64,000 nucleotides of DNA. Source: an uncultured Actinomycetota bacterium. Lineage in GTDB: Bacteria; Actinomycetota; Actinomycetes; Prado026. Under the pieces are notes generated by a model. That model was not told the origin of the DNA. It saw only the letters and a list, made by a program, of their open reading frames with translations, and searched no databases. A program made the translations under genes and the position numbers. Below, piece after piece: positions 13,775 to 44,380 of this stretch (positions are counted from its first letter, which is position 1; each line of letters opens with the position of its first letter). The DNA lies in NCBI GenBank assembly GCA_963711005.1, contig CAVQCJ010000002.1:475729-539728 (forward strand), written 5' to 3'.

Positions 13775-14581
13775 CTACGACAGGTGCGCCGGTTCCCAGG
13801 GACGGAGTACGTCCAGGTCCTCGAGGTCGTAACCGTACGCAGCCGCACGCGGGCCGTAGTCCCGGACCAGCGAACGACGCAACGAGCGCCGCCACGGCCT
13901 GCGGTCCTCGGCCAGCGCGGCCCACCGGGCGGCGTACGCGTCGCTGCGGCCGGCCTGCCAGGCGGAGGCGTCCACCGGGCCGTCGAGCTCGAGGAACCGG
14001 CCGATCGCGTCGAGCTCACCCACCGGGTCGCGCACCAGCTCCTCGTACCGCACGACGTGGACCGCGCGCAGCGACGGCAGGTCCGCGAGGAACGTGTCGT
14101 GGGCGGCGAACCAGTTGGCCATCGGCGTGCGCAGGCTCCGGCCGCGCAGCCACTTGTCCGTGCCGAGCGAGACGACCACCGGGTGCCGGACGATCATCAC
14201 GAACCGCGCCTGCGGGAACAGCCCCTGCAGGAACCGGCTCATCACCAGGTTCGGCGGCGACTTCTCCACCAGCACCGGGCGGTCCAGGTCCCAGTGCGGC
14301 GACCAGGCAGCCGCGAGCCGGCGGGCGCTGTCCTGAGTGGCCAGCGGGGAGTCCTCGGTCAGGTGCGAGCGCGGGTCCAGCGCGAAGCGGCCCGCGCCGC
14401 CGTACGCCCGGGCCGGCGGGTAGACGTCCTGCAGGTGCTGGCCCTCGTCCTCGGTGGCGGACGTGCCGCTGAACCCGGCGACCTGCGGGTGGCCGGCCAG
14501 CACCCTGGTCAGCGGGGTGGTCCCGCTGCGGTGGGTCCCCCCGACGAAGACCAGGCGGTGGTCGGCGAGCGGTGCGCTCAC
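13775..14581 (-). CDS. sulfotransferase family protein (PAPS-dependent type), ST-1
   Basis: 268 aa. 5'-PSB-like loop VFVGGTHRSGTTPL near the N-terminus. 3'-PB-like IVRHPVVVS. The GTG start overlaps the upstream GH26 stop in a GTGA at 14578-14581. Confidence 0.75.
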   Translation of the reverse strand: MSAPLADHRLVFVGGTHRSGTTPLTRVLAGHPQVAGFSGTSATEDEGQHLQDVYPPARAYGGAGRFALDPRSHLTEDSPLATQDSARRLAAAWSPHWDLDRPVLVEKSPPNLVMSRFLQGLFPQARFVMIVRHPVVVSLGTDKWLRGRSLRTPMANWFAAHDTFLADLPSLRAVHVVRYEELVRDPVGELDAIGRFLELDGPVDASAWQAGRSDAYAARWAALAEDRRPWRRSLRRSLVRDYGPRAAAYGYDLEDLDVLRPWEPAHLS

Positions 14582-15606
14582 CCGCCGCCGCCCTGACCCG
14601 TGTTGAAGTACGCCTGCTTGGCCATGGCCGTGAACGCGTGCCAGGGGTCGGTCCCCGGGACCAGGCTGAAGTCGCGGTCGCGGCCGCCGTCCTGGTGCCG
14701 GGCGTCGTAGTACACGACGCCCTTCACCTGCGGGTGCGCCCTGACGAACGCAGCAGTCCCGTTCATCCAGGCCAGCCGCTGCCCGGGCTCCGCGTCCTCC
14801 GCCCCGTACTCGCCGATCAGCACCGGCTTGTCATGGCTGGCGGCCCAGGCCAGGAACTCCGCGGACACCTGCGCGAAGCTGAGGTAGTCCGGCCCCGGGT
14901 AGACGTCGGTGCACAGCCACTCGACCTGGTCGTCCCCGGGGTAGTAGGCGGGACCGCCGGTCGCCTGGAAGTCGGTGGCGATGGGGCACCACACCCAGGC
15001 CGCGTTGGTGGCGCCGACCTCGGTGAAGATCTTCCGGATGTGCTTCCACGCGGCGACGTAGTCGGCCGCGCTCCACACACTGCCGGCCAGGTTCGGGCGG
15101 TTCATCTCCCAGCGCCAGCGCAGCAGGATCGGCGCGCCCAGCGCCTTGACCTCCTCGGCCCGGGCCTTGATCTGCTCGTCGTAGCGCCCGGTCACGATCA
15201 CCCGGGTGTCGGCCCCGGACCACGACAGCAGCAGCGTGCGGCCCTGGGCGACGAAGTTCTTGTCCGCGTCGCTGGGGAAGTCGTCCTCCCACTGGTGGTA
15301 GACCTGCACGACGTCCAGCGAACGACCCAGGCTCCTCTCGAACTTCGCGACCGCGGCGACCTGGCCGCTCTGCGTCGGCACCTCGGGCTTGACCCACGCG
15401 CCGACCCACGCACCGCTGGACGGAGGCTGCGGCCCACGGGCCGGCGGCGCGGACGGCCCGCTCGCCGTCGGCACGCTCACGGTCGGCACCGGAGCCCCTG
15501 CGTCCGGGCTGGCCCCGCCGTAGGTACCGACGAGCAGCGCGTACGCGAGGCCGATCATCGCGAGCGCGGTGGCGAAGACCAGCCAGCGCCCCCGTCGGCT
15601 CAGCAC
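14578..15606 (-). CDS. membrane-anchored glycoside hydrolase, GH26-like
   Basis: N-terminal TM helix (WLVFATALAMIGLAYALLVG). GH26-type motifs LLRWRWEMN (acid/base Glu) and VLIGEYG (nucleophile Glu). The start is trimmed to GTG 15606, which has a GGAGG SD 5 nt upstream, immediately after the Wzx stop (15617). Confidence 0.7.
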   Translation of the reverse strand: MLSRRGRWLVFATALAMIGLAYALLVGTYGGASPDAGAPVPTVSVPTASGPSAPPARGPQPPSSGAWVGAWVKPEVPTQSGQVAAVAKFERSLGRSLDVVQVYHQWEDDFPSDADKNFVAQGRTLLLSWSGADTRVIVTGRYDEQIKARAEEVKALGAPILLRWRWEMNRPNLAGSVWSAADYVAAWKHIRKIFTEVGATNAAWVWCPIATDFQATGGPAYYPGDDQVEWLCTDVYPGPDYLSFAQVSAEFLAWAASHDKPVLIGEYGAEDAEPGQRLAWMNGTAAFVRAHPQVKGVVYYDARHQDGGRDRDFSLVPGTDPWHAFTAMAKQAYFNTGQGGGG

Positions 15607-15616
15607 GTCGGCCTCC

Positions 15617-17191
15617 TCATCGCGCGGCCCCGGCGTGCGCACCGCGGCGGCGCCGCTTCGTCGCCCGGACGAGCGCGTCCAGCTCGAAGACATCCTTCAG
15701 CCGCCAGGACGTGGCAGCGTACCCGGCGAAGCCCACGACGACGGCGCCGGCCAGCACCGGGCCGCTGGTCCCGAACGCCAGCCCGGTCACGAACGGCAGC
15801 ACACCGAGCCAGGAGCCGGCGACGAGCATGGCCAGAAGCGTGCCGCGGCCGAACGGGTGCAGCCGCATCGACACCGCGAGCTGGGTGAGCGGGAGGACGT
15901 TGTTGACGACGATGCCGGCGGCCCAGCCGATGGCCGCGCCGAGGATGCCCAGGTGGGTGCTCGTCAGCAGGTAGTAGCTGAGGCTGATGTTCACGACCAG
16001 AGCGATCGTGGCGTTCATGAGCGTCCACGTGGTCTTGCCGGCCATCGCCAGCACGGCGTCGACCATGCCCGACGCCGTCGCGAACAGCATCGCGCCGGCG
16101 AGCACCACGAGCACGGCCGTGCCGGAGTTGTACCCGTGCCCGAAGATCAGCGGGATCTGCCGGGAGAACACCGCGAGCAGCAGGTAGACCGGCCAGCACA
16201 GCAGCACCAGCCAGCAGGTCGACACCTGGTAGATGTGCAACGCGCCGTCGTGGTCCTCCTTGACCATGAGCGCGCCGATCTGCGGCTGCACCGCGGCGGT
16301 GATCGCCTGCGAGCCGAGCTGGCCGAAGACCAGGAAGCGGGTGACCGCCGCGTACACGGCGGCATGCGCGGGCCCGAGCACCGCCGACACCAGCACGATC
16401 CCGAGCCGCTGCAGCGCGATCTGCACGATGCTCTGCATCGCCCTCGGGGTGGTGAACCGCCAGAACTCCACCCACGGCGTCGGGGACTGGCCGCGGCCGA
16501 TCCCGGCCCGGCGCTCGGCGCGGGCCACCAGCCGGTACGTCCAGACCAGCGCGACCGTCCCGCTGGCGGCGTACGGCAGCGCCCAGGCCAGGCTGAGCCA
16601 GCCGGCCGCGAACGCGCCGACGGCCGCGCCGAGCGCGATCGCCACCAGGGTGAACACGACCTGCAGGACCGGGCGGCCCATCCGCTCCACCACGACCAGC
16701 GGCTTCATGCTGCCGAACGCGCGGGTGGCGTACAGCAGCGAGTCCGAGATGGCCGCGATCGGGATCAGCAGGGCGAGCAGCCGGATCGAGACCAGCGCCG
16801 GCTCCTGGTGCGAGCCGGCCATCCAGTGCGCGAGCGGGCTGCCGAACGCGAGCAGCAGCAGGCTCAGCAGGATCGAGCCGATGACCACCGGCACCAGACC
16901 CGCGCGCAGGATCGCCCGCAGGGTACCGACCTTGTCGAGCGTCCTGGCCCGGACCAGGAAGTACATCAGCCCGGTCGGGCAGCCCAGCCGCGCCGCGGTC
17001 TCCGCGATCAGGAACAGCGAGGTGGCGGCGAAGACCACTCCGGCGGTGACCCGCCCGGCCGCGTGGATGACGACGAGCACGAGCACGAGGTTGAGCACCG
17101 CCGAGACGCCGGCGCCCACCAGCGCCAGCAGCCCGTCGCGGGCGAGCCGGTCGATCCGCTCGCCGGAGGCCGCCGTGGTGTCGACACTCAC
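15617..17191 (-). CDS. oligosaccharide/polysaccharide flippase (MOP superfamily, Wzx-like)
   Basis: About 524 aa. Hydrophobic multi-pass protein (about 12-14 predicted helices by eye) typical of Polysacc_synt/Wzx. GTG 17191 overlaps the upstream sulfotransferase stop as GTGA. Confidence 0.7.
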   Translation of the reverse strand: MSVDTTAASGERIDRLARDGLLALVGAGVSAVLNLVLVLVVIHAAGRVTAGVVFAATSLFLIAETAARLGCPTGLMYFLVRARTLDKVGTLRAILRAGLVPVVIGSILLSLLLLAFGSPLAHWMAGSHQEPALVSIRLLALLIPIAAISDSLLYATRAFGSMKPLVVVERMGRPVLQVVFTLVAIALGAAVGAFAAGWLSLAWALPYAASGTVALVWTYRLVARAERRAGIGRGQSPTPWVEFWRFTTPRAMQSIVQIALQRLGIVLVSAVLGPAHAAVYAAVTRFLVFGQLGSQAITAAVQPQIGALMVKEDHDGALHIYQVSTCWLVLLCWPVYLLLAVFSRQIPLIFGHGYNSGTAVLVVLAGAMLFATASGMVDAVLAMAGKTTWTLMNATIALVVNISLSYYLLTSTHLGILGAAIGWAAGIVVNNVLPLTQLAVSMRLHPFGRGTLLAMLVAGSWLGVLPFVTGLAFGTSGPVLAGAVVVGFAGYAATSWRLKDVFELDALVRATKRRRRGAHAGAAR

Positions 17192-17967
17192 GCGCGCCAC
17201 CCCGGCCGGCGGCCCAGCCACGCCTCCAACCGCTCGTCGTAGGGGCGGAAGTGCTCGTCCAGCCGCGCTGCGAGCCCGGGGTCCATCGGCGACCGCGGGC
17301 GGGCGTTGTGCTGCTCGAACACGGCGCCGTCGAACTCCGGGAGCCCGAGGAAGTCCAGCACCGCGCCGTACGCGTCCGCCGGGCGCTCGAAGAACTCCTG
17401 GCTGTCCACGACGTGCACCCGGTCGCGGCCGAACAGCTCGGCGAGCCGCTCGAGCTGGTCCACGTACTGCCCGCGGGTCAGGTACGCGTTGTGCTGCAGG
17501 TGGAAGCTGTCGTACGCGGGGTCGGCCCGCATCCGCGCCGCTTCGCCGGCGATCCGCTCCGGCTCGAGCTCCAGCGCACGCTCGAACGTCTCGGTCTCGA
17601 AGCCCCGCGCCTTCTCGTGCGTGTACGCGGAGATCGCGCGCTCGACCGGGTCTCGGACCAGGACGACCAGCCGGACGCCCGGCAGGTCGGCGGCGATCCG
17701 GTCGGCCGCCAGCGGGTGGAACATGTAGTACGGGCTCGACTCGCCGGTGATCGGAACCACGCCGACGCGGCCCTCGACCCGGCCGGCGGACACCCGCAGC
17801 GGGAAGTGGCTGCGGTACCAGGCCGGCCCGCGGTCGTAGTTCTTGTCGAAGTAGTGGATGCCCTTCTGCAGCGCCGGGGCGAGCACGGCCGGGTGCTGGC
17901 GCAGCGTCTTGAACATCGATGTCGTGCCGCAGCGCTGCGCGCCGACGATGAGGAACGCCGGTCGCAT
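17188..17967 (-). CDS. sulfotransferase (Sulfotransfer_1/3-like, PAPS-dependent), ST-2
   Basis: MRPAFLIVGAQRCGTTSMF (5'-PSB) and VLVRDPVERAISAY (3'-PB). The 466-aa track ORF has a spurious Arg/Gly-rich N-terminal extension. The start is set to ATG 17967 (alternative TTG 18048), downstream of the kinase-like gene stop at 18066. Confidence 0.8.
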   Translation of the reverse strand: MRPAFLIVGAQRCGTTSMFKTLRQHPAVLAPALQKGIHYFDKNYDRGPAWYRSHFPLRVSAGRVEGRVGVVPITGESSPYYMFHPLAADRIAADLPGVRLVVLVRDPVERAISAYTHEKARGFETETFERALELEPERIAGEAARMRADPAYDSFHLQHNAYLTRGQYVDQLERLAELFGRDRVHVVDSQEFFERPADAYGAVLDFLGLPEFDGAVFEQHNARPRSPMDPGLAARLDEHFRPYDERLEAWLGRRPGWRA

Positions 17968-18065
17968 GCGCGACGACGCGGTGGCCCGCCCGGCGGCCCG
18001 GCTGGCGACCCGCGCCCCCTTCAACAGCTGCCCGCGGACCCCGGTCAACCCTGCGCCACCCACGG

Positions 18066-19319
18066 TCAGTGCTCCTTCGTCTCGGCCGCGGCGGACGCGG
18101 GTCCCCGCACCGCCCCGGGCACGCTCTCCAGGACCGGCAGCAACCAGTCCCCGAGGCGGCCGACGGCCGCGCCGGCCCCGTCCTGGTCGTCCGCCGCGTA
18201 GCGCACGCCGATCCCCCAAAGGTACGCAGCGGCCGCCAGCGGCGCGTCCTGCGCCGGGACGCCGAACGGCGCGGTCAGCCGGGCGGCGTCGGCGAGCACG
18301 CGGCGCGCGGCCCCGCCCGGGTCGACGCCGGCGGAGATCGCCGCCTGCAGGCTCAGGTGCAGGGCGTCGAAACCGGCCGGCACACCGGTCTCGTACCGTT
18401 CCCAGTCCCAGACCAGCACGGCCCCGGGGACGACCGAGCAGTTGCCGGCGTTCCAGTCGCCGTGCCAGGCGCTCGGCACGAGCACGCAGCCGGCCGCGTC
18501 GGCCACCAGCCGGTCCCGGGCCGCCGCGAGCCGGCTCGCGACGTCGCCGGGTGGCAGCGCCTCGAGCGCAGCAACCGTCCGCCCCCACCAGGGCAGGTCA
18601 ACGAGCGCGGACGGCGTCCCGGTTCCGGTGCGGGCGACCGCGACCATGGCGTCGACCAGCCGAGCCCCGCCGCCGGGGTCGGCGGCCCGGCGGACCGGCA
18701 GCGGCGCCTGCACCAGCAACGGGTGCCCCTGCCACCCGCCCGAGTGCAGCACCTCGGGCACCCGGACCTGGCCGAGCCCGGTGTCGTCGGCGAGCTGGAG
18801 CAGGGCCGCGGTCTCCGCCCGTACCAGCCGGTCGGTCAGCGGGTTAGTGCCGAGCTTGGCGTAGGCGAGCAGCTTGCCTCGCGGCGACACCACCTGCAGC
18901 ACCGGTTTGCGGTTCGCCCGGGGCGGGCCGATGCGGATCCCGAGGCGGACGTCCTGACCGAGCAGGTCGGCCAGTGCCGAGTCGAGACCGTCCCTGGCTC
19001 CTTCGACCTGGGTCACCACCAGCCGGCCGGGCAGCAGCCGGCCGGCCAGCCCGACGCGGAAGGCCAAGGCCATGGAACGGTTCCGGACCGCCGCGCGGGT
19101 CGAGCCGGCCGCCGCCTGGCCGCGCGCGACAGCGGACGCCGCGGCCCACGGCCGCAACGGGACGGCGAGCCGGGCGTCGTCGACCGAGGGCAGCAGCGCG
19201 TAGGCGGTCGAACCGGGCTCCCGCCGAGCTTCGGCGAGGTCGCGGACGGTGCCGACGCGCACCCGCGCCGGAGCCGGCCACAGCAGGGCCGCCGCGTCGG
19301 CGAGGGACCCGCCGCTCAC
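18066..19319 (-). CDS. phosphotransferase-family (APH/choline-kinase-like) protein
   Basis: 417 aa. Brenner-type catalytic motif HGDWNAGN followed by VWDWE (metal-binding Asp). GTG 19319 overlaps the Wzy-like stop as GTGA (19316-19319). The rest of the 862-aa track ORF is a shadow extension. Confidence 0.6.
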   Translation of the reverse strand: MSGGSLADAAALLWPAPARVRVGTVRDLAEARREPGSTAYALLPSVDDARLAVPLRPWAAASAVARGQAAAGSTRAAVRNRSMALAFRVGLAGRLLPGRLVVTQVEGARDGLDSALADLLGQDVRLGIRIGPPRANRKPVLQVVSPRGKLLAYAKLGTNPLTDRLVRAETAALLQLADDTGLGQVRVPEVLHSGGWQGHPLLVQAPLPVRRAADPGGGARLVDAMVAVARTGTGTPSALVDLPWWGRTVAALEALPPGDVASRLAAARDRLVADAAGCVLVPSAWHGDWNAGNCSVVPGAVLVWDWERYETGVPAGFDALHLSLQAAISAGVDPGGAARRVLADAARLTAPFGVPAQDAPLAAAAYLWGIGVRYAADDQDGAGAAVGRLGDWLLPVLESVPGAVRGPASAAAETKEH

Positions 19320-20746
19320 CGGTCGCCACCGGCGAACAGCCGTGGCCCGCCCTCCCGCAAGACGGCGAGGTCGGCCGCGCGCTGCTCGCGCCTGGCCTGG
19401 TCGTTGCGCCACAGCAGCGCCATGCCCATCAACGTGATGGCCAGCGGCGACACGACCGAGGTGTAGAAGAGCGAGTAGAAGATGCCCAGCAGCAGGACCA
19501 GCGTGCCGCCGATCCCCACCACGGAATGGTCGCGCCAGTAGCGGATGACGCCCTGGAAGAGGAACAGCAGGTAGAGGATCGCGCCCGGGTAGCCCTGGGC
19601 CACCAGGAGCAGCCACAGCTGCCCGGTACTGCCGATCACGCGGTTGCCGCAGCGCGGGCAGCCGGGGCTCTGCCCGATCGTGGCCGACTTGTCGCTGCCG
19701 ATCGTCGACCGGGTGCTGCCGTAGCCGATCGGCGACGTCGCGGCGACCTTCAGCGACTCCAGCGACAGTGACCCGCGGACCTCGTTGCTGTGCGGCGTCG
19801 CGATCCGCGCCGTCACCACGTCCTGGAGCGGGGAGAGCACGACGGCGGCGCCGACGAGCCCGGCCGCAACCCCGAGCCCGAGCAGGATCGCGTAGCGGTG
19901 CTGCAGGGCCAGTCGCAGGGCGACGTACATTGCGCCCAGCACCAGGCCCAGCCACATGCCGCGGTTCTGCGAGTACACGACCGGTACGACCGACACCGCG
20001 AGCACGACGAGCGCGACCACCCGGCGCCGGTCGGAGGCGTACAGCAGCCAGCCGATGACGAACCAGACAAGCAGCATCGAGTAGTTGTTGCCCCAGGCGT
20101 TCGCGTACTCGAACGGCGCGCTGGGCCGCGGGTAGCCCAGGACCGTCTGGACCTGCGCGCTCTCGATGTGCGTGAACTGCTGGACGAAGTCGATGCTCTG
20201 CAGGCTGGCGGGCAGGATGGCCTTGATCGGCGAGTCGTACCCGAAGTGCGGCGCGAACGTGCCGAGCAGCCCGCCGACGACGGTGACGACGAACACCACG
20301 CCCAGCCAGCGGATCAGCCGCAGCCGGGGCAGCTCGCGCTCGGTCAGGTTGCCGGTGTAGATCATCACCAGCGTGACGGACAGGTAGTTGAGCAGCCGGA
20401 TCGCGTACGCGATGTAGTGGCCGGGTCCGCCGTTCACCGGCAGCGTGTCCGGCGCCTGGACGTCGACCATCAGGCCGCTGATGACCACCAGCGACAGGAA
20501 CAGCGCCCACACCCAGAACATCGGCGGCAGCTTGATCGGGCGCCGCCTGGACAGCTGGAAGACCATCGGGATCGCGAAGAGCGTCCACACCAGCGGGGCG
20601 ATCCCCAGCGCCCACCACAGCGGGTAGCCGAGCAGCAGCGCAGCCAGCGGCCACGCGGTCGGCAGCCGGCGCGCCGGCGCTGCGTGCGCCCCCGCGCGGG
20701 TCCCGGTGGTCCGCGGCCGGTGCCGGTCCAGCCCGACCGCGGTCAC
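19316..20746 (-). CDS. O-antigen polymerase/ligase-like (Wzy_C-type) integral membrane protein
   Basis: About 476 aa. Many hydrophobic helices with one large loop. Its position within a Wzx/PCP cluster supports the call. GTG 20746 overlaps the DUF3048 gene stop as GTGA (20743-20746). Confidence 0.6.
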   Translation of the reverse strand: MTAVGLDRHRPRTTGTRAGAHAAPARRLPTAWPLAALLLGYPLWWALGIAPLVWTLFAIPMVFQLSRRRPIKLPPMFWVWALFLSLVVISGLMVDVQAPDTLPVNGGPGHYIAYAIRLLNYLSVTLVMIYTGNLTERELPRLRLIRWLGVVFVVTVVGGLLGTFAPHFGYDSPIKAILPASLQSIDFVQQFTHIESAQVQTVLGYPRPSAPFEYANAWGNNYSMLLVWFVIGWLLYASDRRRVVALVVLAVSVVPVVYSQNRGMWLGLVLGAMYVALRLALQHRYAILLGLGVAAGLVGAAVVLSPLQDVVTARIATPHSNEVRGSLSLESLKVAATSPIGYGSTRSTIGSDKSATIGQSPGCPRCGNRVIGSTGQLWLLLVAQGYPGAILYLLFLFQGVIRYWRDHSVVGIGGTLVLLLGIFYSLFYTSVVSPLAITLMGMALLWRNDQARREQRAADLAVLREGGPRLFAGGDR

Positions 20747-21759: not shown

Positions 21760-21787
21760 GACGTCGCGCCGCCCCCAGCCGGTCACG

Positions 21788-33470: not shown

Positions 33471-33569
33471 GACTCGACGGTACGCCGCGCGCCATCCGGA
33501 ACACAGACCCGAAGGCCTCGCCACGGGCGCCCCGCCGCGGCCGCGCCGGGGCGCCCGTGGCGCTCAGGA

Positions 33570-35095: not shown

Positions 35096-35219
35096 GCGCC
35101 TCGCCGACCACGCCGCGCGGCACCTCGGGCAGGCGCACAACGGTCGAGGTCGGGCCTCAAGAACGGGCTGTCCGGAGGTCGACACTCGTGCCAGATGTCG
35201 AGCCGTCGGAGGTGCTCCC

Positions 35220-35399
35220 ATGCGAGTGGTCTACGTCGTCGGAGACGGACCTTTGGAAGGAGCGACCTACGCCCTCGAGAGTCGCCTGCCCATCACCGAG
35301 GAGCTCGAGCTGCCCCTTCAGGAAGGTCCGGTCGCCGTCTACCGCGTCGGCCAGGACTCCAAGCTCTGGTTCATCCACCTGTTGCCGCCGACCTCGTAG
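35220..35399 (+). CDS. small hypothetical protein (59 aa), absent from the ORF track
   Basis: ATG 35220 is preceded by GGAGG. It translates to MRVVYVVGDGPLEGATYALESRLPITEELELPLQEGPVAVYRVGQDSKLWFIHLLPPTS with TAG at 35397-35399, followed by a strong hairpin. Confidence 0.35.
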   Translation: MRVVYVVGDGPLEGATYALESRLPITEELELPLQEGPVAVYRVGQDSKLWFIHLLPPTS

Positions 35400-35447
35400 G
35401 GGTCGGCGGGCGGCCGCCGGGCACCCCTGGCCGCACCCCGGACGGCG

Positions 35448-35479
35448 CCGAGGACCGGACCTTCCGGTCCGGTCCTCGG
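35448..35479. terminator. bidirectional hairpin terminator (perfect 14-bp stem, 4-nt loop)
   Basis: CCGAGGACCGGACC-TTCC-GGTCCGGTCCTCGG lies between the convergent 59-aa ORF and the CBM-GH gene. Confidence 0.55.
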
Positions 35480-35513
35480 TCGCAGCACCGGGTATCTGAT
35501 CAGAGCGAACGGG

Positions 35514-37353: not shown

Positions 37354-38346
37354 TCAGACCGAGGTCTCGGCCCCGTCGGACGGCGTGGCCGTCTGCTCGA
37401 CGGAGTCGCCGTCTGCTCGCTGCCCGGCTCCCGGCCGCGGCTCGTACCGAGACAGCGCCGGCAGCCCGTAGGAGCGGCGCACCTGCATCCAGGCCAGGGA
37501 GCCGACGACGATCGTGACCAGGAGGATCCAGGCCAGTGCCGTGGTGCCGACGCCGACGAGCTTGAGACCGGACGCCAGCAGCACCAGCGTGAGGGCCCGG
37601 CGGATGATGCCGCCCCGGGCCTGCGAGGAGAACCGTGCCCCGATGTACACGCCGGGGATGCAGCCCACCAGCAGCGACGCCGTGATCCCGAGCTGGAAGT
37701 CGCCGTACAGCACGTGCCCGAGCGCGGCCGCGGCGACGAGCGGCACCGCCTGGACCAGGTCGGTCCCGACCAGCTGGTTGGCCTTGAGGACGGGGTAGAG
37801 CATCAGCAGCGCGATGATGATGAGCGACCCGGAGCCAACGCTGGTCATGCCCACGACCAGGCCACCGACCGCGCCGATCGCGATCGTCGGCAGGACCTTC
37901 ACCTTCAGCGGGGGCGGAACGGGGCTGGTGTCCACGGCGAGCCCCTGCGAGCGCCGCTGCACCCGCTCGCGCAGGGCGAGGTACGTCTTGACGATGAGGC
38001 CGAGGACGGCCAGGAGCAACGCGTATCCCAGCGCCTGCTTGACCACGCCCTGCAGGTCTGCCGCGCCGAGCGCGCGCAGCACGAACACCCCGGCGAAGGC
38101 GCACGGCACCGACCCGATGGCCAACCACTGGACGAGCTTCCAGTTGACCGTGCCGCGGCGGATGTGCACCGCGGCACCGACCGGCTTCATGAACACCGAC
38201 GCGACCAGGTCGCTGGAGACGGCGGCGAGTGGCTGGATGTTGAAGACGAGGACCAGGATCGGGGTCATCAGCGCGCCGCCACCCATACCGGTCAGACCCA
38301 CCACGACGCCGACGATCAGCCCGGCCAGGGCCAGTCCGTAGTCCAT
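37354..38346 (-). CDS. TauE/SafE (TSUP, DUF81) family anion permease
   Basis: MDYGLALAGLIVGVVVGLTGMGGGALMTPILV... with the duplicated 4-TM pattern of TSUP proteins. ATG 38346 overlaps the cysC-fusion stop as ATGA. Confidence 0.8.
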   Translation of the reverse strand: MDYGLALAGLIVGVVVGLTGMGGGALMTPILVLVFNIQPLAAVSSDLVASVFMKPVGAAVHIRRGTVNWKLVQWLAIGSVPCAFAGVFVLRALGAADLQGVVKQALGYALLLAVLGLIVKTYLALRERVQRRSQGLAVDTSPVPPPLKVKVLPTIAIGAVGGLVVGMTSVGSGSLIIIALLMLYPVLKANQLVGTDLVQAVPLVAAAALGHVLYGDFQLGITASLLVGCIPGVYIGARFSSQARGGIIRRALTLVLLASGLKLVGVGTTALAWILLVTIVVGSLAWMQVRRSYGLPALSRYEPRPGAGQRADGDSVEQTATPSDGAETSV

Positions 38347-39818
38347 CAGCCGTCCTCTCCTCGTGCCGTGGGCGCGAAGCCGCGCAGGCGCAGCTCCGCC
38401 AGGACCAGCTCCACCGCAGTAGCCACATCGACAGCCGAGGTGTCCACCCGGAGGTCCGCGTCGGCGGGTTCTTCGTAGGGGTCGCTCACCCCGGTGAACT
38501 CCGGCAGCAGCCCGGCTCGAGCCTGGGCGTACAGCCCCTTCCGGTCCCGGGCCTCGCAGACCTCGAGCGGGGTGCTGACGTGCACGAGCAGGAACTCCCC
38601 ACCGGCGTCGGCCGCCATCGCACGCACCGCGGCCCTGGTGCTGTCGTACGGCGCGATCGGCGCGCACAATGCCACCCCGCCGTGCCGCGCCACCTCGGCG
38701 GCGACGAAGCCGATGCGGCGGACGTTCGTGTCCCGGTCCGCTCGAGAGAAGCCCAGGCCCTTGGACAGGTGCCGCCGCACGACGTCGCCGTCCAGCAGGG
38801 TCACCGTGCGGTCGGTGGACTCCAGCAACGCCTCGGCGACCCCCTGCGCGACGGTCGACTTGCCCGACCCGGACAGGCCGGTGAAGAAGAGGACCACCCC
38901 GCGACGCTCCGGCGGCGGGCGGTGGGCGCGCAGCACGTCCAGCGCGGCCTCGGGGAAACCGGACCCCTGCTCGACCAGCCAGTCCAGCTCGGCCCGGGTG
39001 GCCGGCGGCAGGTGCAGCGCCTGCGGCACGCCGTAGGCCTTCGCCACCGTCTCGCGAAGGGCCAGGTCGACGGTCGTACCCGTCCCGGTCAGCGGCAGCG
39101 CCACGGGGACCACGACGGATCCGTCCGGGAGCGCGGGCAACGTGGCCCGGAGCGCGCGCACCAGTCCGAAGGCGCCCGGGTACGGGGCGCGTCCGTGCCC
39201 GACCAGGGCCAGCACCAGGACCGGTTGCCCGGCCGCCCGCGCGGCCACGACCGCCAGGTCGTCGGCGATGAGCGGGCGTGCGGTGGTGACGGCCAGGGCG
39301 GGCGGCACCGGGCGGGCCGCCACCTCGGCCGGAGTCAGCCGCATCCGGCGGAACGGGCCGTGGCTGAGCGGGCGCAGCCCGGTGACCGCACCCGCGACCA
39401 GAACCGGTCCCGGCTCGCCGTCGTCGGCAGCACCCGCGTCGTCGACCGGGGAGGTCGCCGTGACCTCGAGCAGGGCGACCGGAACGCCCTCGGCGTCCTC
39501 GAGCACCGCCCGGCCGCCCGCGGCGACGGCGCGGGCGAGCTCGGCCGGCACGGTCAACGGGACCTGGAGCAGGGCGCCCGGCTCGCCGGGGAGCGTGAAA
39601 CCGCCGGTGACGATCCCGGCCAGCTCGAGCTCGACGAGGTCCAGCGCCGCGCCCTCGACATGCACGGACGGCAGCGCGGCCAGCTCCTCGGGAAGCACCC
39701 CGACGCTGAGCGCCACCGCCTCGGCGACCACCTGCGCGACGACCTGGTCGGAGGTCAGACCCTCATCCGGGGGCCCGGCTTCCGACTCGGTCGTGTCGTC
39801 CATCGCCGCCTGTTCCAT
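38346..39818 (-). CDS. cysC: adenylylsulfate (APS) kinase fused to an N-terminal degenerate ATP-sulfurylase-like domain
   Basis: The C-terminal 190 aa carry FFTGLSGSGKSTVA, LDGDVVRRHL, FSRADRDTNVRRIGFVA and CAPIAPY, which is canonical CysC. The N-terminal ~290 aa are colinear with Sat (PUA-like plus catalytic fold). QTRNPxHRAH is replaced by TTARPLIADD, and no GRDHAG motif is present. Confidence 0.85.
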   Translation of the reverse strand: MEQAAMDDTTESEAGPPDEGLTSDQVVAQVVAEAVALSVGVLPEELAALPSVHVEGAALDLVELELAGIVTGGFTLPGEPGALLQVPLTVPAELARAVAAGGRAVLEDAEGVPVALLEVTATSPVDDAGAADDGEPGPVLVAGAVTGLRPLSHGPFRRMRLTPAEVAARPVPPALAVTTARPLIADDLAVVAARAAGQPVLVLALVGHGRAPYPGAFGLVRALRATLPALPDGSVVVPVALPLTGTGTTVDLALRETVAKAYGVPQALHLPPATRAELDWLVEQGSGFPEAALDVLRAHRPPPERRGVVLFFTGLSGSGKSTVAQGVAEALLESTDRTVTLLDGDVVRRHLSKGLGFSRADRDTNVRRIGFVAAEVARHGGVALCAPIAPYDSTRAAVRAMAADAGGEFLLVHVSTPLEVCEARDRKGLYAQARAGLLPEFTGVSDPYEEPADADLRVDTSAVDVATAVELVLAELRLRGFAPTARGEDG

Positions 39819-39838: not shown

Positions 39839-41092
39839 TCAGTCGCCGGCCGTGATCATCCCGGCCGCGACGGTGCGGTTGGTCGCCTCGTCGACGAGCA
39901 CGAAGCCCCCGGTGGTGCGGTTGCGCGAGTACGGGTCGCAGAGCAACGGCTGGGTGGTCCGCAGGCGCACCCGGCCGATCTCGTTGAGCCGCAGCTCCTC
40001 GGCCGCCTCGTCGCGGTGCAGGGTGTTGACGTCGAGGCGGTACTGCAGGTCCTTGACCATCGCCCGCACCCCGCGGGTGGTGTGCTTGACCGCCAGCTTC
40101 TGGCCGGCCCGCAACGACGAGGTGCCGTCCATCCAGCAGATCATCGCGTCGATGTCCTGGGTGACGAGCGGCTGGTTGTGCGGGCGGCAGACCATGTCGC
40201 CGCGCGAGACGTCGAGGTTGTCCTCCAGTCGCACGGTGACCGACATGGGCGGGTACGCCTCGTCGACCGGGCCGTCACCGGTCTCGATGGACGCGATCCG
40301 CGACGTGAACCCCGACGGCAGCACGACGACCTCGTCGCCGGGCTTGAGCACGCCGCCGGCCACCTGGCCCGCGTAGCCGCGGTAGTCCGGGTACGCCGAC
40401 GACTGCGGCCGGATCACGTACTGGACCGGGAACCGCACGTCGACCAGGTTGCGGTCGGAGGCCACATGCACGTTCTCCAGGTGGTGCAGCAGCGACGGGC
40501 CGTCGTACCAGGGCATCTTGTCGCTGCGGGTGACGACGTTGTCGCCGTTGAGCGCCGACACCGGGATGAACGTGAGGTCCGGGATGTTCAGCTTGGTCGC
40601 GAACGCCGTGAACTCGGCGCGGATGTCCTCGAACACCTGCTCGGAGAAGTCGACCAGGTCCATCTTGTTGATGCACAGCACGAGGTGCGGCACCCGCAGC
40701 AGCGTCGTGAGGAACGCGTGCCGGCGGCTCTGCTCGACCAGGCCGTTGCGCGCGTCGACGAGGATGATGGCGAGGTCGGCGGTCGAGGCCCCGGTGACCA
40801 TGTTGCGGGTGTACTGGATGTGGCCGGGGGTGTCCGCGATGATGAACTTGCGCTTCGGGGTCGCGAAGTACCGGTAGGCCACGTCGATCGTGATGCCCTG
40901 CTCGCGCTCGGCTCGGAGCCCGTCGGTGAGCAGCGCGAGGTTGGTGTACTCGTCGCCGCGCTCCCGGCTGGTGCGCTCGACCGACTCGAGCTGGTCCTCG
41001 AAGATGGCCTTGCTGTCGTACAGGAGCCGTCCGATCAGCGTGCTCTTGCCGTCGTCGACCGAGCCGGCGGTGGCGAACCTGAGCAGGTCCAT
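39839..41092 (-). CDS. cysN: sulfate adenylyltransferase subunit 1 (GTPase)
   Basis: 417 aa. GSVDDGKSTLIGRLL, DTPGHIQYTRNM, NKMDL. No fused kinase domain. ATG overlaps the cysD stop (ATGA at 41092). Confidence 0.95.
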   Translation of the reverse strand: MDLLRFATAGSVDDGKSTLIGRLLYDSKAIFEDQLESVERTSRERGDEYTNLALLTDGLRAEREQGITIDVAYRYFATPKRKFIIADTPGHIQYTRNMVTGASTADLAIILVDARNGLVEQSRRHAFLTTLLRVPHLVLCINKMDLVDFSEQVFEDIRAEFTAFATKLNIPDLTFIPVSALNGDNVVTRSDKMPWYDGPSLLHHLENVHVASDRNLVDVRFPVQYVIRPQSSAYPDYRGYAGQVAGGVLKPGDEVVVLPSGFTSRIASIETGDGPVDEAYPPMSVTVRLEDNLDVSRGDMVCRPHNQPLVTQDIDAMICWMDGTSSLRAGQKLAVKHTTRGVRAMVKDLQYRLDVNTLHRDEAAEELRLNEIGRVRLRTTQPLLCDPYSRNRTTGGFVLVDEATNRTVAAGMITAGD

Positions 41093-42027
41093 CAGAAGTA
41101 GCCTTCCTTCTTGCGGTCTTCCATCGCGGCCTCGCTGACCTTGTCGTCACCGCGGGTCGCACCGCGCTCGGTCAGCCTGGTGACCGCGACCTCGTCGATG
41201 ATCTTGTGCAGCGTGTCGGCCTCGGAGTAGACCGCCGCGGTCAGCGTCGCGTCGCCGACGGTGCGGTACCGGACCGTCGCCGTGAAGACCTCGTCGCCGG
41301 GGCGCGGCCGGGAGAACTCGGTGACCGCCATCACCATCCCCTCGCGCACGAACACCTCGCGTTGGTGGGCGAAGTAGATGGACGGGAGCGCGATCTGCTC
41401 AGTGGCGATGTACTGCCACACGTCCAGCTCGGTCCAGTTGGACAGCGGAAAGACCCGGATGCTCTCCCCCGCGTGCACCCGGCCGTTGTAGAGGCTCCAC
41501 AGCTCGGGGCGCTGGTTCTTGGGGTCCCACTGCCCGAACTCGTCGCGGAACGAGAACACCCGCTCCTTGGCCCGGGCCTTCTCCTCGTCCCGGCGGGCGC
41601 CGCCGAACAGCGAGTCGAAGCGGTACTTCTCGGCGGCCTCGAGCAGGACCTGGGTCTGGATCCGGTTGCGCGAGCCGTTGGGCTCCTCGCGGACGATGCC
41701 GCGGTCGATCGCGTCCTGGACCGAGGCGACGATCAGCTGCAGGCCGAGCTCGCCGACGCGGCGGTCGCGGAACGCGAGCACCTCGGGGAAGTTGTGCCCG
41801 GTGTCCACGTGCAGCACCGGGAACGGGATCGCGGCCGGCCAGAACGCCTTCTCGGCCAGCCGCAGCATGACGATGGAGTCCTTGCCGCCGGAGAACATCA
41901 GCGCCGGGCGCTGCATCTCCGCGACCACCTCGCGGATGATGTGGATGGACTCCGCCTCGAGCGCCCTGAGCTGGCTCAGGTTGTAGTCGCGGCCGGGCGC
42001 CCCCGGGTTGGTGTCGGCCGGCGTCAC
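41092..42027 (-). CDS. cysD: sulfate adenylyltransferase subunit 2
   Basis: LRALEAESIHIIREV...LMFSGGKDSIVMLRLA...HVDTGHNFPEV. GTG 42027 overlaps the cysQ stop as GTGA (42024-42027). The rest of the 509-aa track ORF is a shadow extension. Confidence 0.95.
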   Translation of the reverse strand: MTPADTNPGAPGRDYNLSQLRALEAESIHIIREVVAEMQRPALMFSGGKDSIVMLRLAEKAFWPAAIPFPVLHVDTGHNFPEVLAFRDRRVGELGLQLIVASVQDAIDRGIVREEPNGSRNRIQTQVLLEAAEKYRFDSLFGGARRDEEKARAKERVFSFRDEFGQWDPKNQRPELWSLYNGRVHAGESIRVFPLSNWTELDVWQYIATEQIALPSIYFAHQREVFVREGMVMAVTEFSRPRPGDEVFTATVRYRTVGDATLTAAVYSEADTLHKIIDEVAVTRLTERGATRGDDKVSEAAMEDRKKEGYF

Positions 42028-42794
42028 AGGGCAACCTCCGAGATCGTCGTCAGCACACGGTCCGCGAGCTCGGGCCGGCACACCACCAGGTCGGGCAGGA
42101 GGACGTCGCGGCGGTTGTACAGCAACGGCGACCCGTCCAGCCGGGAGGCGTGCAGCCCGGCTGCCAGGGCCACGGCGACCGGGGCCGCCGAGTCCCACTC
42201 GTACTGTCCGCCCGCGTGCACGTACAGGTCCACCTCGCCACGCACGACGGCCGCCACCTTGTAGCCCGCCGAACCCATCGGCACCGCCTCCAGGCCCAGC
42301 CGCTCGACCAGGCGCTGGGCGACCGCCGGCGGCCGGGTGCGGCTGACGGCCATCCGGAGCCGGGCGTCCGGGCCGCCGGCCGGCGGCGGGACGACCGGTG
42401 CCGGGTCGGTGCCCAGGACCAGGTCCAGGCCAGGCAGGGCCACCGCACCGGCGGCCAGGTCCCCGTCGGCCCAGAGCGCCACGTGGACGGCCCAGTCGTG
42501 CCGGCCCTCGGAGTACTCGCGGGTCCCGTCCAGTGGGTCGATGATCCAGACGCGGGCGGCGTCGAGGCGGCGCAGGTCGTCCGCAGCCTCCTCGGAGAGC
42601 ACCGCGTCGTCCGGGCACCACTGGGCGAGCCGTTGCGCGAGCAGGTCCTGGGAGGACCGGTCGCCGAGCACTTTGAGCTCGGCCGGGTCAGCCGCGGGGT
42701 GTCCGGCGCGGACGGAGACGAGCAGCTGACCGGCCTCGTACGCCAGTGCGGCAGCGCGTTCGGCGTCGCTCGAGGTCGTCGGCACGGACACCAT
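42024..42794 (-). CDS. cysQ: 3'(2'),5'-bisphosphate nucleotidase (PAP phosphatase), IMPase family
   Basis: VLSEEAADD, WIIDPLDGTREY and YEWDSAAP are IMPase/CysQ motifs. Start at ATG 42794 (alternative 42863, 15 nt below the PGT stop). Confidence 0.85.
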   Translation of the reverse strand: MVSVPTTSSDAERAAALAYEAGQLLVSVRAGHPAADPAELKVLGDRSSQDLLAQRLAQWCPDDAVLSEEAADDLRRLDAARVWIIDPLDGTREYSEGRHDWAVHVALWADGDLAAGAVALPGLDLVLGTDPAPVVPPPAGGPDARLRMAVSRTRPPAVAQRLVERLGLEAVPMGSAGYKVAAVVRGEVDLYVHAGGQYEWDSAAPVAVALAAGLHASRLDGSPLLYNRRDVLLPDLVVCRPELADRVLTTISEVAL

Positions 42795-42877
42795 CCTAAG
42801 AACCTCGGTGACGCTGCGTGATCGCACCGGGGCGACGACCATCGGATTCGTTGTTCCGGGCATCTGCGACCGCCGGC

Positions 42878-44380
42878 TCAGTACGCGCCGCTACCGCGGA
42901 GCACGGCGCGGGCGGTCTTCCACAGGATGAGCAGGTCCGTCGCGAGGGTCCAGTTGTCCACGTAGCGCAGGTCCAGGCGGACGGACTCCTCCCAGGACAG
43001 GTCCGCACGACCGCTGACCTGCCAGAGCCCGGTCACGCCGGGGCGCACCAGCAGCCGGCGCCGGGTGTCGTCGGCGTACTCGGCGACCTCCTCCGGCAGC
43101 GGCGGGCGCGGCCCGACCAGCGACATCGAGCCGGTCAGCACGTTGAACAGCTGGGGCAGCTCGTCCAGGGAGTACCGGCGCAGCCACGTGCCCACCCTGG
43201 TCACCCGCGGGTCGGCACGCATCTTGAACATCAGTCCGTCGCGGTCGGAGTGCTCGAGCAGCTGCTCGCGCAACGCCTCGGCGTCGACGACCATCGAGCG
43301 GAACTTCCACATCGTGAACGGCCTGCCGTCCTTGCCGATCCGCTGCTGGCGGAAGAACGCGGGGCCGCGGCTGGTCAGCCGGACCGCCAGGGTGATCGCG
43401 AGCAGGAGCGGAGAGAACAGCACGATCATCGCCAGCGCGAACGTCCGGTCGAAGGTCGACTTCACGATCCGGCGGCCGCCGGTGAACTGAGGCTGCTCGA
43501 CCTGCAGCAGCGGGAGGCCGGTGACCGGGCGGATGCTCAGCCGGGGACCGGCGACCTCGACCAGGGACGGGGCGACGAGCAGGTCGGCCCCGGTCGGCTC
43601 GAGGTCCCAGGCCAGCCGGCGAAGCTGCTCGGGACCGAAGTCGGGGCTGGCCAGCACCGCCACCGTGTCGGCGTCGGTGAGTCGGACGGCCTGCTCGACG
43701 GAGCCGAAGCCACCGACCACCGGGACACCGCGCTCCATCAGCGCGGGACGCTGGCCCGGCAGCGGCAGGCACGCGGCCACCACCTGCAGGCCGTGGAAGC
43801 GCTCGTCGCCGAGCCGGCGCAGCATCTCCAGGACGGGCACCTCGTGCCCCACGACGACGACCCGGTGCAGGTACTCGCCCTTGGCCCGGCGGCTGTGCAG
43901 CCACTGCCGCAGCACGTACCGGGCACCGACCGTGAGCATGGTGACCAGCGGCAGGCTGATCAGGACGTAGTGCCGACCCTCACTGCGGTTGGCCAGGTAG
44001 GCGGTGAAGGCGACCACGGCGGTGAGCGTCACCCCGGCGCGGGCCACCCGGCGGAACTCCTCCGAGCCGACACCGAGGAACCGTGGCTCGTACGCACGGT
44101 TGAGCGAGACAGCCAGCACCCACACGAACGGGATGACCACCGTCAACGTGTTGTAGACGCGCGGGACGTAGCCGGTCGGCGCCGTCAGATAGGTCACGGA
44201 CCCGGCCACCAACGCGGCGGCGGCGTCGACGCCGATGCACAGCCGTACGTAGTGGCGCTGCCAGCGCGACTCCGGACGTACGACGGCGACGTCCCCCGAG
44301 CGCGCCGTGGTGACCGATGCCCTCCGCAGCCCCTCGCTCGGGGCCAACCCCAGGCCCTCGCGATGGTCCAGCACAGCCAT
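42878..44380 (-). CDS. polyprenyl-phosphate glycosyl-1-phosphate transferase (WbaP/CpsE-type priming enzyme)
   Basis: N-terminal TM bundle plus a central Rossmann-like region. C-terminal Bac_transf domain: KRTFD..., FKMRADPRVTRVG..LRRYSLDELPQLFNVL.G.MSLVGPRP, RPGVTGLWQVSGR. ATG 44380 has a GGGAG SD (alternative GTG 44410). Confidence 0.9.
   Translation of the reverse strand: MAVLDHREGLGLAPSEGLRRASVTTARSGDVAVVRPESRWQRHYVRLCIGVDAAAALVAGSVTYLTAPTGYVPRVYNTLTVVIPFVWVLAVSLNRAYEPRFLGVGSEEFRRVARAGVTLTAVVAFTAYLANRSEGRHYVLISLPLVTMLTVGARYVLRQWLHSRRAKGEYLHRVVVVGHEVPVLEMLRRLGDERFHGLQVVAACLPLPGQRPALMERGVPVVGGFGSVEQAVRLTDADTVAVLASPDFGPEQLRRLAWDLEPTGADLLVAPSLVEVAGPRLSIRPVTGLPLLQVEQPQFTGGRRIVKSTFDRTFALAMIVLFSPLLLAITLAVRLTSRGPAFFRQQRIGKDGRPFTMWKFRSMVVDAEALREQLLEHSDRDGLMFKMRADPRVTRVGTWLRRYSLDELPQLFNVLTGSMSLVGPRPPLPEEVAEYADDTRRRLLVRPGVTGLWQVSGRADLSWEESVRLDLRYVDNWTLATDLLILWKTARAVLRGSGAY

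Follow-up and report, generated by a model that had tools for sequence, protein, structure and literature searches.

A putative sulfated-polysaccharide locus with its own sulfate-donor operon in an uncultured actinomycete, a relative of wps-1 of Actinoplanes missouriensis

A stretch of 64,000 nucleotides from an uncultured Actinomycetota bacterium (contig CAVQCJ010000002.1 of assembly GCA_963711005.1, positions 475,729 to 539,728 of the forward strand), here called the window, was analysed following a first-pass annotation that had proposed a sulfated-glycan gene cluster at positions 13775-44380. The cluster is real; it is more than a chance grouping because the same gene set in the same order recurs in dozens of independent actinomycete genomes. 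It is, by sequence homology, a relative of wps-1 of Actinoplanes missouriensis, and it quite likely encodes a Wzx/Wzy pathway for a short-repeat-unit, O-sulfated heteropolysaccharide with its own supply of sulfate donor. The strongest genomic argument so far for such a product lies in sulfotransferases (STs) that are fused to a glycosyltransferase (GT) and co-transcribed or contiguous with a priming phosphoglycosyl transferase (PGT), with genes for the synthesis of 3'-phosphoadenosine 5'-phosphosulfate (PAPS), with one for the removal of 3'-phosphoadenosine 5'-phosphate (PAP) and with a sulfur-anion permease.

Organisation of the locus

At ~73% G+C the raw list of open reading frames (ORFs) held 142 overlapping entries, and the gene map used here was called from codon usage, with the clearest ORFs as the training set. 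Window proteins were assigned to families with the Pfam and NCBIfam hidden Markov models, and further with PDB sequence searches and AlphaFold2 (AF2) models searched with Foldseek. The Pfam scan of the ORFs returned most of the families that had been named in the first-pass annotation; Wzy_C and Wzz stayed under the gathering score and the kinase had no Pfam match of its own. An operon on the minus strand (13775-23356) encodes, in order, a polysaccharide co-polymerase (PCP), a DUF3048 protein, a Wzy-like protein, a kinase-like protein, an ST, Wzx, a GH26 protein and another ST. This eight-gene order had been read before as a chain held together by four GTGA stop/start overlaps (14581, 17191, 19319 and 20746), and codon-usage calling arrived at the same order; all four overlaps are present. 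Divergent from it on the plus strand is an operon (23666-26768) for an Alg14-like protein, an Alg13-like::ST fusion and a GT2 enzyme, for which both the coordinates and the Pfam and NCBIfam families agree with the earlier reading and which has a GTGA overlap at 24307. A second minus-strand operon runs from 44374 down to 37354 and encodes a PGT, CysQ, CysD, CysN, CysC and TauE; its order and Pfam families likewise bore out the description of a WbaP-type PGT heading a cysQ-cysD-cysN-cysC-tauE operon, and a further GTGA overlap lies at 42027. The two halves of the locus had been placed a few kb apart. They are indeed separate, and between them lie 8.7 kb in which the genes are unrelated, together with a second GH26-like gene (35514-37049).

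The window comes from an uncultured actinomycete without known sporangia, whose Mfd protein is 74-76% identical to those of its nearest named relatives, Motilibacter and metagenome-assembled genomes (MAGs) of the Frankiaceae/Nanopelagicales.

Sulfotransferase domains

All three ST domains are, as judged by homology, bona fide PAPS-type sulfotransferases, and they score 92.6, 58.2 and 50.0 bits in Pfam against cut-offs of 27, 22 and 27. The two PAPS-binding signatures, the 5'-phosphosulfate-binding (PSB) loop and the 3'-phosphate-binding (PB) motif, which had been claimed for each of them, are where they were said to be. The ST at 13775-14581 (minus strand; Sulfotransfer_3, E 5.6e-26), a TPST-like third ST encoded by an accessory gene, has RSGTT at residue 18 and VRHP at 131. 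The ST at 17188-18048 (minus strand; Sulfotransfer_1, E 1.1e-15, and Sulfotransfer_3, E 7.6e-13), which resembles heparan sulfate 3-O-sulfotransferases and is the counterpart of WpsH, has RCGTTS at residue 39 and VRDP at 131. The remaining domain, with RSGST at residue 199 and VRDS at 345, belongs to the fusion of an Alg13/PssE-type protein with a WpsB-type ST (24307-25800, plus strand; Glyco_tran_28_C, E 1.5e-13, Sulfotransfer_3, E 5.8e-13, with the NCBIfam models WelK and PssE also matching). In PDB sequence matches these motifs align with those of TPST2, 3-OST-3 and 3rnl. The ST at 17188-18048 matches the bacterial protein 3rnl (E 1.1e-20) and heparan sulfate 3-OST-3A1 (E 3.4e-19), with the PSB, the PB and the Glu of TGESSPYY aligned; this Glu we take to be at the catalytic base position of heparan sulfate 3-O-sulfotransferases. 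The match of the ST at 13775-14581 to TPST2 was weak (E 2e-5, PSB aligned), as were the sequence matches of the fusion ST domain to solved structures.

The fusion is composed of the Alg13/PssE-type catalytic half of a split GT-B enzyme (residues 12-153) and the ST (residues 190-497), and more than 120 homologues are full length with both domains. Invariant among 14 diverse homologues are GRSG(S/T)T (R199), E220, K323 and R346-D347. The sulfotransferase fold was checked by modelling for the fusion ST alone of the three: the AF2 model, built on the 14 homologues, had a mean confidence (pLDDT) of 84.9, and Foldseek matched its C-terminal domain to TPST1/2 (E 1e-6, target-normalised TM-score 0.54-0.63) and also to Stf9, 3rnl and 3-OST-1, and its N-terminal domain to the nucleotide-sugar half of GT-B enzymes. 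Reassignment of the domains to a P-loop family other than sulfotransferases thus failed, as Pfam and PDB matches, and Foldseek for the fusion, all pointed to sulfotransferases. The three STs are from mutually distant subfamilies, alike at motif level only, which is consistent with three different acceptor positions. Neither transmembrane (TM) segments nor signal peptides were found in any of them.

After the PSB loop of the fusion ST there is an invariant cluster of H223, C235, C237 and C244 (HLWERGLRDDELCGCxxxFSxC, residues 223-244). The cluster may be a zinc site of WpsB-type STs, and we know of no description of such a His/Cys cluster in other sulfotransferases.

The sulfate-donor operon

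The first gene of the PAPS operon, all of which is on the minus strand, encodes the priming PGT of WbaP/Bac_transf type (42878-44374; Bac_transf, E 3.3e-69 at residues 305-492, with a weak CoA_binding_3 match), a protein with four TM-like segments. It is followed by a CysQ-type phosphatase of the inositol monophosphatase family (42024-42794; Inositol_P, E 1.2e-30), which is predicted to be a PAP phosphatase, by the small subunit CysD (41092-42027; PAPS_reduct, E 1e-43) and the GTPase subunit CysN (39839-41092; GTP_EFTU, E 1.1e-42, and GTP-eEF1A_C) of ATP sulfurylase, by a two-domain CysC, the kinase for adenosine 5'-phosphosulfate (APS) (38346-39818; APS_kinase, E 1.3e-56 at residues 306-459), and by a TauE/SafE-family permease (37354-38346; TauE, E 3.4e-42, eight TM-like segments), whose family would make it a transporter of sulfate or sulfite. 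From cysQ to tauE the successive junctions are -4, -1, +20 and -1 nt, the start of the permease gene overlapping the cysC stop. Among the operon genes there is no reductase beside the APS kinase and the PAP phosphatase. Actinobacterial sulfur assimilation, as known from mycobacteria, runs through an APS reductase and has no need of PAPS; mycobacterial sulfation is itself supported by a CysQ-type PAP phosphatase.

The cysC gene had been labelled as such before, and the APS kinase stood; the implied single-domain protein did not, as the N-terminal half (residues 1-300) is by sequence comparison a degenerate ATP-sulfurylase-like domain. In a profile search this half matched 3cr8 in its sulfurylase domain (E 1.1e-17) as well as ATP sulfurylases from yeast and fungi. 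It reads TTARPLIADD at the presumed sulfurylase active site, opposite what we take to be the family motif, QxRNPxHxxH, and without that histidine motif the sulfurylase activity would be supplied by CysDN. The best PDB match to the whole protein (E 2.3e-71), and to both of its halves, is 3cr8, the two-domain APS kinase of Thiobacillus denitrificans, a likeness at the level of the component only; there too an ATP-sulfurylase-like domain, reportedly catalytically inactive, precedes the APS kinase.

Conservation of the cassette among actinomycetes

A scan of species-representative genomes for relatives of the fusion gave at least 560 stretches confirmed by tblastn, from which 80 loci (distinguished here by L numbers) were kept for all counts, and each window protein was run by tblastn against them. 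The closest of the kept loci, with 68-69% identity to the fusion, come from actinomycete MAGs. The fusion form occurs in many Micromonospora and the stand-alone ST form in Actinoplanes, Couchioplanes, Dactylosporangium, Glycomyces, Actinomadura and others, and the cassette is also found in uncultured soil and freshwater lineages. A GT2 homologue was found in 78 of the 80 loci, the heparan-sulfate-type ST in 66 (41-73% identity), the kinase in 63, Wzy also in 63 and always adjoining the kinase gene, Wzx in 59, the PCP in 50 and a DUF3048 homologue in 18, Micromonospora included. Two ST genes are present in 55/80 loci and three or four in 14/80. The order of the Wzx-ST-kinase-Wzy block is kept nearly everywhere, with the heparan-sulfate-type ST always between Wzx and the kinase. 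The third ST was found outside the window only at 5139-5900 of L019 (64%) and at 2-322 of L014 (77%, cut by the contig end), always at the GH26 end of the operon.

It had been suggested that related genomes be surveyed for co-occurrence of the STs with the cysQDNC-PGT operon, and the two are adjacent in several independent lineages. In at least nine loci (L007, L010, L014, L016, L041, L045, L058, L069 and L070) cysQ, cysD, cysN and the PGT gene are directly beside the cassette, in various orientations. The PGT homologues beside cysQDN are 45-55% identical to that of the window (L007, L010, L016, L041, L045, L058, L069 and L070), and the homologues of CysD and CysN that adjoin the cassette are 68-88% and 74-88% identical. 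TauE homologues stand beside cysC in L007, L010 and L014, and in the Dactylosporangium locus L072 a homologue of the two-domain CysC is directly beside the PCP gene. In 23/80 loci the cassette has a CysQ homologue no more than 10 kb away; in Micromonospora it is CysQ alone that adjoins the cassette.

The closest long relative, L014, encodes GT2 and the CBM-GH26 protein and then at once TauE, CysC, CysN and CysD, and because the two halves are contiguous there, the gap in the window can be regarded as secondary, that is, as an insertion. The segment that splits the window locus (26813-35500, ~8.7 kb) is unrelated to the glycan system. Its GC content is 0.655-0.70 against ~0.73 elsewhere, its coding scores are poor, and its genes are for a DUF222 (DUF222/HNH-type) protein, a CMD protein, two glyoxalase-like proteins, a Lipoprotein_15 protein and a luciferase-like monooxygenase. 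It is absent from L014, where 55 bp separate GT2 from the CBM-GH26 gene, and from this position in other relatives. The segment was considered as a recognisable mobile element and rejected as such: no flanking repeats, integrase or transposase were found at 26813-35500, and the DUF222 gene was all that there was. Within it, at 34446-34493, a 24-nt unit (GGCACCGGTGGACGCCTCGGACTC) is perfectly duplicated in tandem.

Relationship to wps-1 and to other sulfated-glycan systems

The wps-1 cluster was described by Tezuka and Ohnishi (AEM, June 2026; PMC13390465) as AMIS_7280-7380 of A. missouriensis, encoding WpsA to WpsK. WpsA is a GT2 enzyme, WpsB an ST, WpsC a GT26 enzyme, WpsD a DUF4262 protein, WpsE a GH26 protein, WpsF a methyltransferase, WpsG Wzx, WpsH an ST of heparan-sulfate type, WpsI protein-kinase-like, WpsJ Wzy and WpsK Wzz (PMC13390465). 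Loss of the cluster, or of any single gene except wpsD, distorts the sporangia, and deletion of the whole cluster blocks spore release (PMC13390465). Deletion of AMIS_7390, of the sulfurylase/APS-kinase family, caused a severe sporangium defect that was 'unexpected' to the authors, with no growth defect reported; PAPS goes unmentioned in the paper (PMC13390465). From the mutant phenotypes, not from chemistry, a contribution of wps-1 to the extracellular matrix of the sporangium was proposed (PMC13390465). The statement in the first-pass annotation that no comparable actinobacterial system had been characterised is thus superseded by the genetics of wps-1, whose core genes are the same and stand in the same order. 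Further literature searches found neither a chemical report of a sulfated actinomycete polysaccharide nor another account of the cassette.

The comparison with wps-1 was made through L034 (Actinoplanes sp. CA-015351), whose content equals the published cluster gene for gene, and not with the AMIS sequences themselves. The window proteins match those of L034 in the same order at 35-55% identity, and because L034 has the exact content of wps-1, the window locus is regarded as a relative of wps-1. The genes for PCP, Wzy, the kinase-like protein, the heparan-sulfate-type ST, Wzx and GH26 have the same order in both, the window adding DUF3048 after the PCP. A WpsB-type ST is beside GT2 in both, residues 191-492 of the fusion being 50% identical to the stand-alone ST of the Actinoplanes loci, and both have a neighbouring gene of the ATP-sulfurylase/APS-kinase family (38346-39818 in the window and AMIS_7390), so that the window CysC and AMIS_7390 are members of the same family. 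The GT26 enzyme (WpsC), the DUF4262 protein (WpsD) and the SAM methyltransferase (WpsF), all of which are present in L034, are missing from the window, which has a split GT of Alg14/Alg13 type in place of GT26, with the WpsB-type ST fused to it. Extra in the window are a third ST, a second GH26-like gene, the lipoprotein with DUF3048 and the secreted protein with propeller, malectin and PKD domains, and both the PGT gene and a complete cysQDNC-TauE operon lie within its locus.

Among other bacteria, the synechan (xss) cluster of Synechocystis sp. PCC 6803 has Wzx, Wzy and PCP genes and two STs of different subfamilies, and sulfation of its product was shown chemically (PMC8205485). As in the window, the STs are embedded in a Wzx/Wzy/PCP cluster; the likeness is one of gene content, the organism being Gram-negative, with export through an outer-membrane polysaccharide export (OPX) protein, eight GTs and the regulators XssQ/R/S. 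The synechan cluster is without a kinase-like gene, GH26 or a GT-ST fusion, and neither PAPS nor cysC is mentioned in the paper (PMC8205485). In and beside the window locus neither an OPX partner nor XssQ/R/S regulators were found, an OPX protein not being expected in a Gram-positive host. The list of bacterial sulfated glycans given in the first-pass annotation proved too narrow, as cases from Vibrio and Cobetia marina were absent from it (PMC11641403; PMC11766843). The capsular polysaccharide of Vibrio sp. KMM 8419 is sulfated, with a structure solved by NMR, and its cluster has STs together with second copies of cysD, cysN and cysC (PMC11641403). The combination of STs with a second cysDNC was called by its authors a 'hallmark' of sulfated polysaccharide synthesis (PMC11641403). 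The window shares with it STs combined with a dedicated cysDNC in a polysaccharide cluster and differs in that the Vibrio cluster, from a gammaproteobacterium, has export by a Kps-type ABC system rather than Wzx/Wzy and unrelated GTs and STs. For C. marina a sulfated capsular polysaccharide with a gene cluster is reported, according to the title of the paper (PMC11766843). The mycobacterial Stf0/Stf9 pathway is likewise an actinobacterial use of PAPS on glycoconjugates, and Stf9 matches the fusion ST structurally; its acceptors, however, are trehalose lipids and glycopeptidolipids, and its genes are not grouped with Wzx, Wzy and PCP.

Assembly proteins and the APH-fold kinase

The Alg14/PssD-type subunit of the split GT (23666-24310, plus strand; Alg14, E 7.3e-11; NCBIfam PssD/Cps14F, E 2.6e-29) spans the whole of the NCBIfam PssD/Cps14F model with residues 69-213, and its true start is probably Met68, near 23867. 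The GT2 enzyme (25797-26768, plus strand; Glycos_transf_2, E 1.1e-22) is the counterpart of WpsA. The Wzx flippase of the MOP/MATE superfamily (15617-17200, minus strand; MatE, 34.5 bits against a cut-off of 24.9), counterpart of WpsG, has eleven TM-like segments and alternative starts at 17191 and 17221, making three in-frame candidates, of which that at 17191 has the GTGA overlap. The Wzy-like protein, a putative polymerase (19316-20746, minus strand; Wzy_C, E 3.5e-4), has at least eight TM-like segments and is the positional homologue of WpsJ, polymerase and ligase being indistinguishable from sequence in this family. The PCP (21788-23356, minus strand; Wzz, E 1.2e-4; CspC-family PCP, E 5.3e-19), counterpart of WpsK, has TM segments at 27-45 and 244-262 and a degenerate P-loop domain resembling BY-kinases, to which NCBIfam tyrosine autokinase models match with E 1e-12. 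In this domain neither a GxxxxGK[ST] Walker-A motif (the sequence reads VVVTGAQDGHGTA) nor a C-terminal tyrosine cluster was found, and on these features the PCP is probably not an autokinase.

The kinase-like protein of 417 aa (18066-19319, minus strand), counterpart of WpsI, gave no match in Pfam, NCBIfam or PDB sequence searches. Some of its homologues carry PF01636, and 34 sequences share, without exception, K138, E169, H286-G-D288, N293 and D305. Its AF2 model (pLDDT 91.6), which has an extra N-terminal domain of ~110 residues, was matched best by Foldseek to fructosamine-3-kinase 3jr1, APH(3')-IIa 1nd4 and APH(4)-Ia (E ~1e-5). Sequence conservation and model together mark it as an active-looking kinase of the APH/fructosamine-kinase fold. 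Of the earlier label, APH-like kinase, the fold was therefore upheld by homologues, model and catalytic residues, and a Pfam match of its own was not. The family is large, with 1757 cluster representatives at 50% identity (E<=1e-30), and the window protein has neither a TM segment nor a signal sequence.

Hydrolases and extracellular proteins

Three proteins with export signals, the GH26 protein, the DUF3048 protein and the CBM-GH26 protein, are encoded in the locus. The membrane-anchored GH26 glycanase (14578-15693, minus strand), counterpart of WpsE, has an N-terminal TM segment at 38-56 and a weak Pfam GH26 match (18 bits); in the PDB it matches CelH of Clostridium thermocellum (E 7.8e-17), and both glutamates align with those of the CelH GH26 domain (WEMN/HEAN and IGEY/IAEF). 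That domain is presumably a beta-1,3-1,4-glucanase and the aligned glutamates, as we take them, its catalytic pair. A secreted protein with CBM4_9 and GH26-like domains (35514-37049, minus strand; CBM_4_9, E 6.6e-9; Glyco_hydro_26, 20.1 bits, at the cut-off) is a second glycanase candidate; its long form has a hydrophobic N-terminus, and it is a distant paralogue of the first, with 25% identity over ~290 residues. Its homologues are directly 3' of GT2 in L002, L014, L016, L022, L025, L027, L046 and L069. The DUF3048 lipoprotein (20743-21786, minus strand; DUF3048, E 3.5e-9; DUF3048_C, E 1.3e-5) has a lipobox-like LAGC at 30-33.

Next to the third ST a secreted protein of 1527 aa is encoded (8952-13535, minus strand; Pfam PKD_4, Malectin and Rax2), with a signal-peptide-like N-terminus and beta-propeller, malectin and PKD regions. 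Homologues of its propeller (the N-terminal ~450 residues) are beside or inside the cassette in 24/80 loci, for example at 8268-9596 of L041, 8426-9637 of L062 and 17-1288 of L002, and in some loci the gene stands between cysN and an ST gene. A DUF5122/Rax2 propeller was present in 15 of the 18 homologous members scanned. A PDB profile search with the conserved propeller gave chance-level matches only, and no homologue was found in the wps-1-type loci of Actinoplanes. The protein may be a further extracellular component of the system.

Proposed pathway and alternatives

In the proposed pathway the WbaP-type transferase would load a hexose-1-phosphate onto undecaprenyl phosphate, and the split Alg14/Alg13 GT would add a second sugar, probably beta-1,4-linked, which by analogy, through family names, with Cps14F/G, PssDE and WelK may be Gal or GlcA. 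The ST domain fused to the catalytic half of this GT would sulfate the nascent lipid-linked glycan, GT2 would add a further sugar, and the heparan-sulfate-type ST, the TPST-like ST and the APH-fold kinase would add more sulfate and perhaps phosphate, with up to three sulfated positions. Because the four modifying enzymes have no signal peptides or TM segments and use PAPS or ATP, decoration would precede flipping. Wzx would then flip the unit, the Wzy-like protein polymerise it and the PCP set the chain length, and the anchored GH26 and the secreted CBM-GH26 may trim or release the polymer. CysDN would make APS and CysC PAPS, CysQ would remove the inhibitory PAP, and the TauE permease would move sulfate or sulfite. 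We infer the substrates, the number of sugars and actual sulfation, and the individual substrates are far less certain than the model as a whole.

A number of observations weigh against this pathway. The product of wps-1 is predicted to be a sulfated exopolysaccharide and according to its authors awaits verification (PMC13390465), and the host of the window is uncultured. The score of the Wzy-like protein (20.8 bits) is below the Wzy_C cut-off of 31.7, the Wzz match of the PCP is below its gathering score, and the kinase domain of the PCP looks inactive. TPSTs are the closest structural relatives of two of the three STs (13775-14581 and the fusion), so that a non-glycan acceptor is conceivable, and cysDN by itself is also compatible with sulfur assimilation.

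The likeness to TPST1/2, by sequence or fold, would fit a system in which the polysaccharide is made and at least one ST acts instead on a tyrosine of a secreted protein, for which the propeller/malectin/PKD protein next door is a candidate, or on a glycolipid, like RaxST or the mycobacterial Stf enzymes. The likeliest candidate is the ST at 13775-14581, which is rare (window, L014 and L019) and which in the window and L019 lies between the cassette and a large secreted protein. We consider this unlikely; the likeness to TPST is at fold level only, with 16-20% identity, and the propeller protein is present in many loci that lack this ST, while in more than 120 homologues the fusion ST forms one polypeptide with a GT half, the heparan-sulfate-type ST keeps its place between Wzx and the kinase, and normal sporangia depend on stand-alone WpsB just as they do on Wzx and Wzy (PMC13390465). 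Equally improbable in our view is a wall-anchored, lipid-linked or protein-linked glycan rather than a free exopolysaccharide, or a Wzy-like protein that is a ligase. The Wzy_C domain is common to O-antigen ligases and is matched weakly here, the kinase domain of the PCP is degenerate, and the lipoprotein, the anchored GH26 and the secreted carbohydrate-binding genes suggest association with the envelope; however, the window yielded neither a ligase of the LytR-CpsA-Psr family nor an oligosaccharyltransferase, a PCP is retained in 50 of the 80 loci, and in A. missouriensis the phenotypes led to a proposed role in the extracellular sporangium matrix (PMC13390465).

It is very improbable that the polymer is unsulfated, the cysQDNC-TauE operon serving general assimilation and the ST domains being inactive or otherwise employed. 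The genes cysD and cysN are indeed also assimilatory, and chemistry of the polymer exists for no member of the cassette family. The first gene of the operon is nevertheless that of the glycan PGT, the genes overlap or follow one another closely, an APS kinase is paired with a PAP phosphatase and a reductase is absent, and separate lineages show the same linkage to the cassette in differing orientations. The PSB, PB and catalytic residues are moreover invariant across the fusion homologues, and deletion of AMIS_7390 gave a severe sporangium defect like that of the cluster deletion without a reported growth defect (PMC13390465). Sulfation and phosphorylation of the product are, here and in the literature, what we and others infer.

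Flanking genes

The glycan locus is embedded in a housekeeping neighbourhood, with eno, a DUF885 gene, mazG, a SurA_N-like gene and mfd on one side (555-8903) and pth, rplY (L25), prs, glmU and a tRNA gene (48595-48667) on the other (44625-48667). An Rfam scan of the window found this one tRNA in total and no match inside the glycan locus. The right flank (44.6-64 kb) was considered as part of the system and rejected on account of its gene content, which is pth, rplY, prs, glmU, regulators and MprF-like genes. One MprF-related gene (51098-53602, minus strand) encodes 834 aa with LPG_synthase_TM as its sole domain, in the C-terminal part (518-821), and a separate one (61585-63723, plus strand) encodes 712 aa with LPG_synthase_C and a rhomboid-like region.

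Implications

The sole actinomycete study, of 2026, argued from the phenotypes of mutants and from predicted domains (PMC13390465), and to this the window adds the GT-ST fusion, the third ST, the embedded operon for priming, PAPS supply and PAP removal, and the recurrent propeller protein. A requirement for PAPS would explain the 'unexpected' AMIS_7390 phenotype, for which PAPS supply is a simple account. The cassette also turns out to reach far beyond the one case studied, and it is not confined to sporangium formers. A broader reading can be offered only tentatively, and we regard it as rather doubtful: the cassette may make an ancient and widely conserved envelope or matrix polymer of actinomycetes, sulfated and phosphorylated, an analogue of the glycosaminoglycans. 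The GT-ST fusion would in that case sulfate the undecaprenyl-linked glycan co-synthetically, the phosphate added by the kinase might remain in the polymer or act as a checkpoint for flipping or polymerisation, and the propeller and GH26 proteins would form an extracellular layer dedicated to processing. The role would reach beyond sporangia, because the cassette is found in Micromonospora, Actinomadura and Glycomyces and also in uncultured lineages of soil and freshwater. Culturable and genetically tractable carriers exist in several Micromonospora and Actinoplanes strains, among them Micromonospora haikouensis DSM 45626, Micromonospora sp. ATCC 39149 and A. missouriensis, and if the polymer is confirmed, it would give access to sulfated glycans, and to sulfotransferases for polysaccharides, from a new microbial source.

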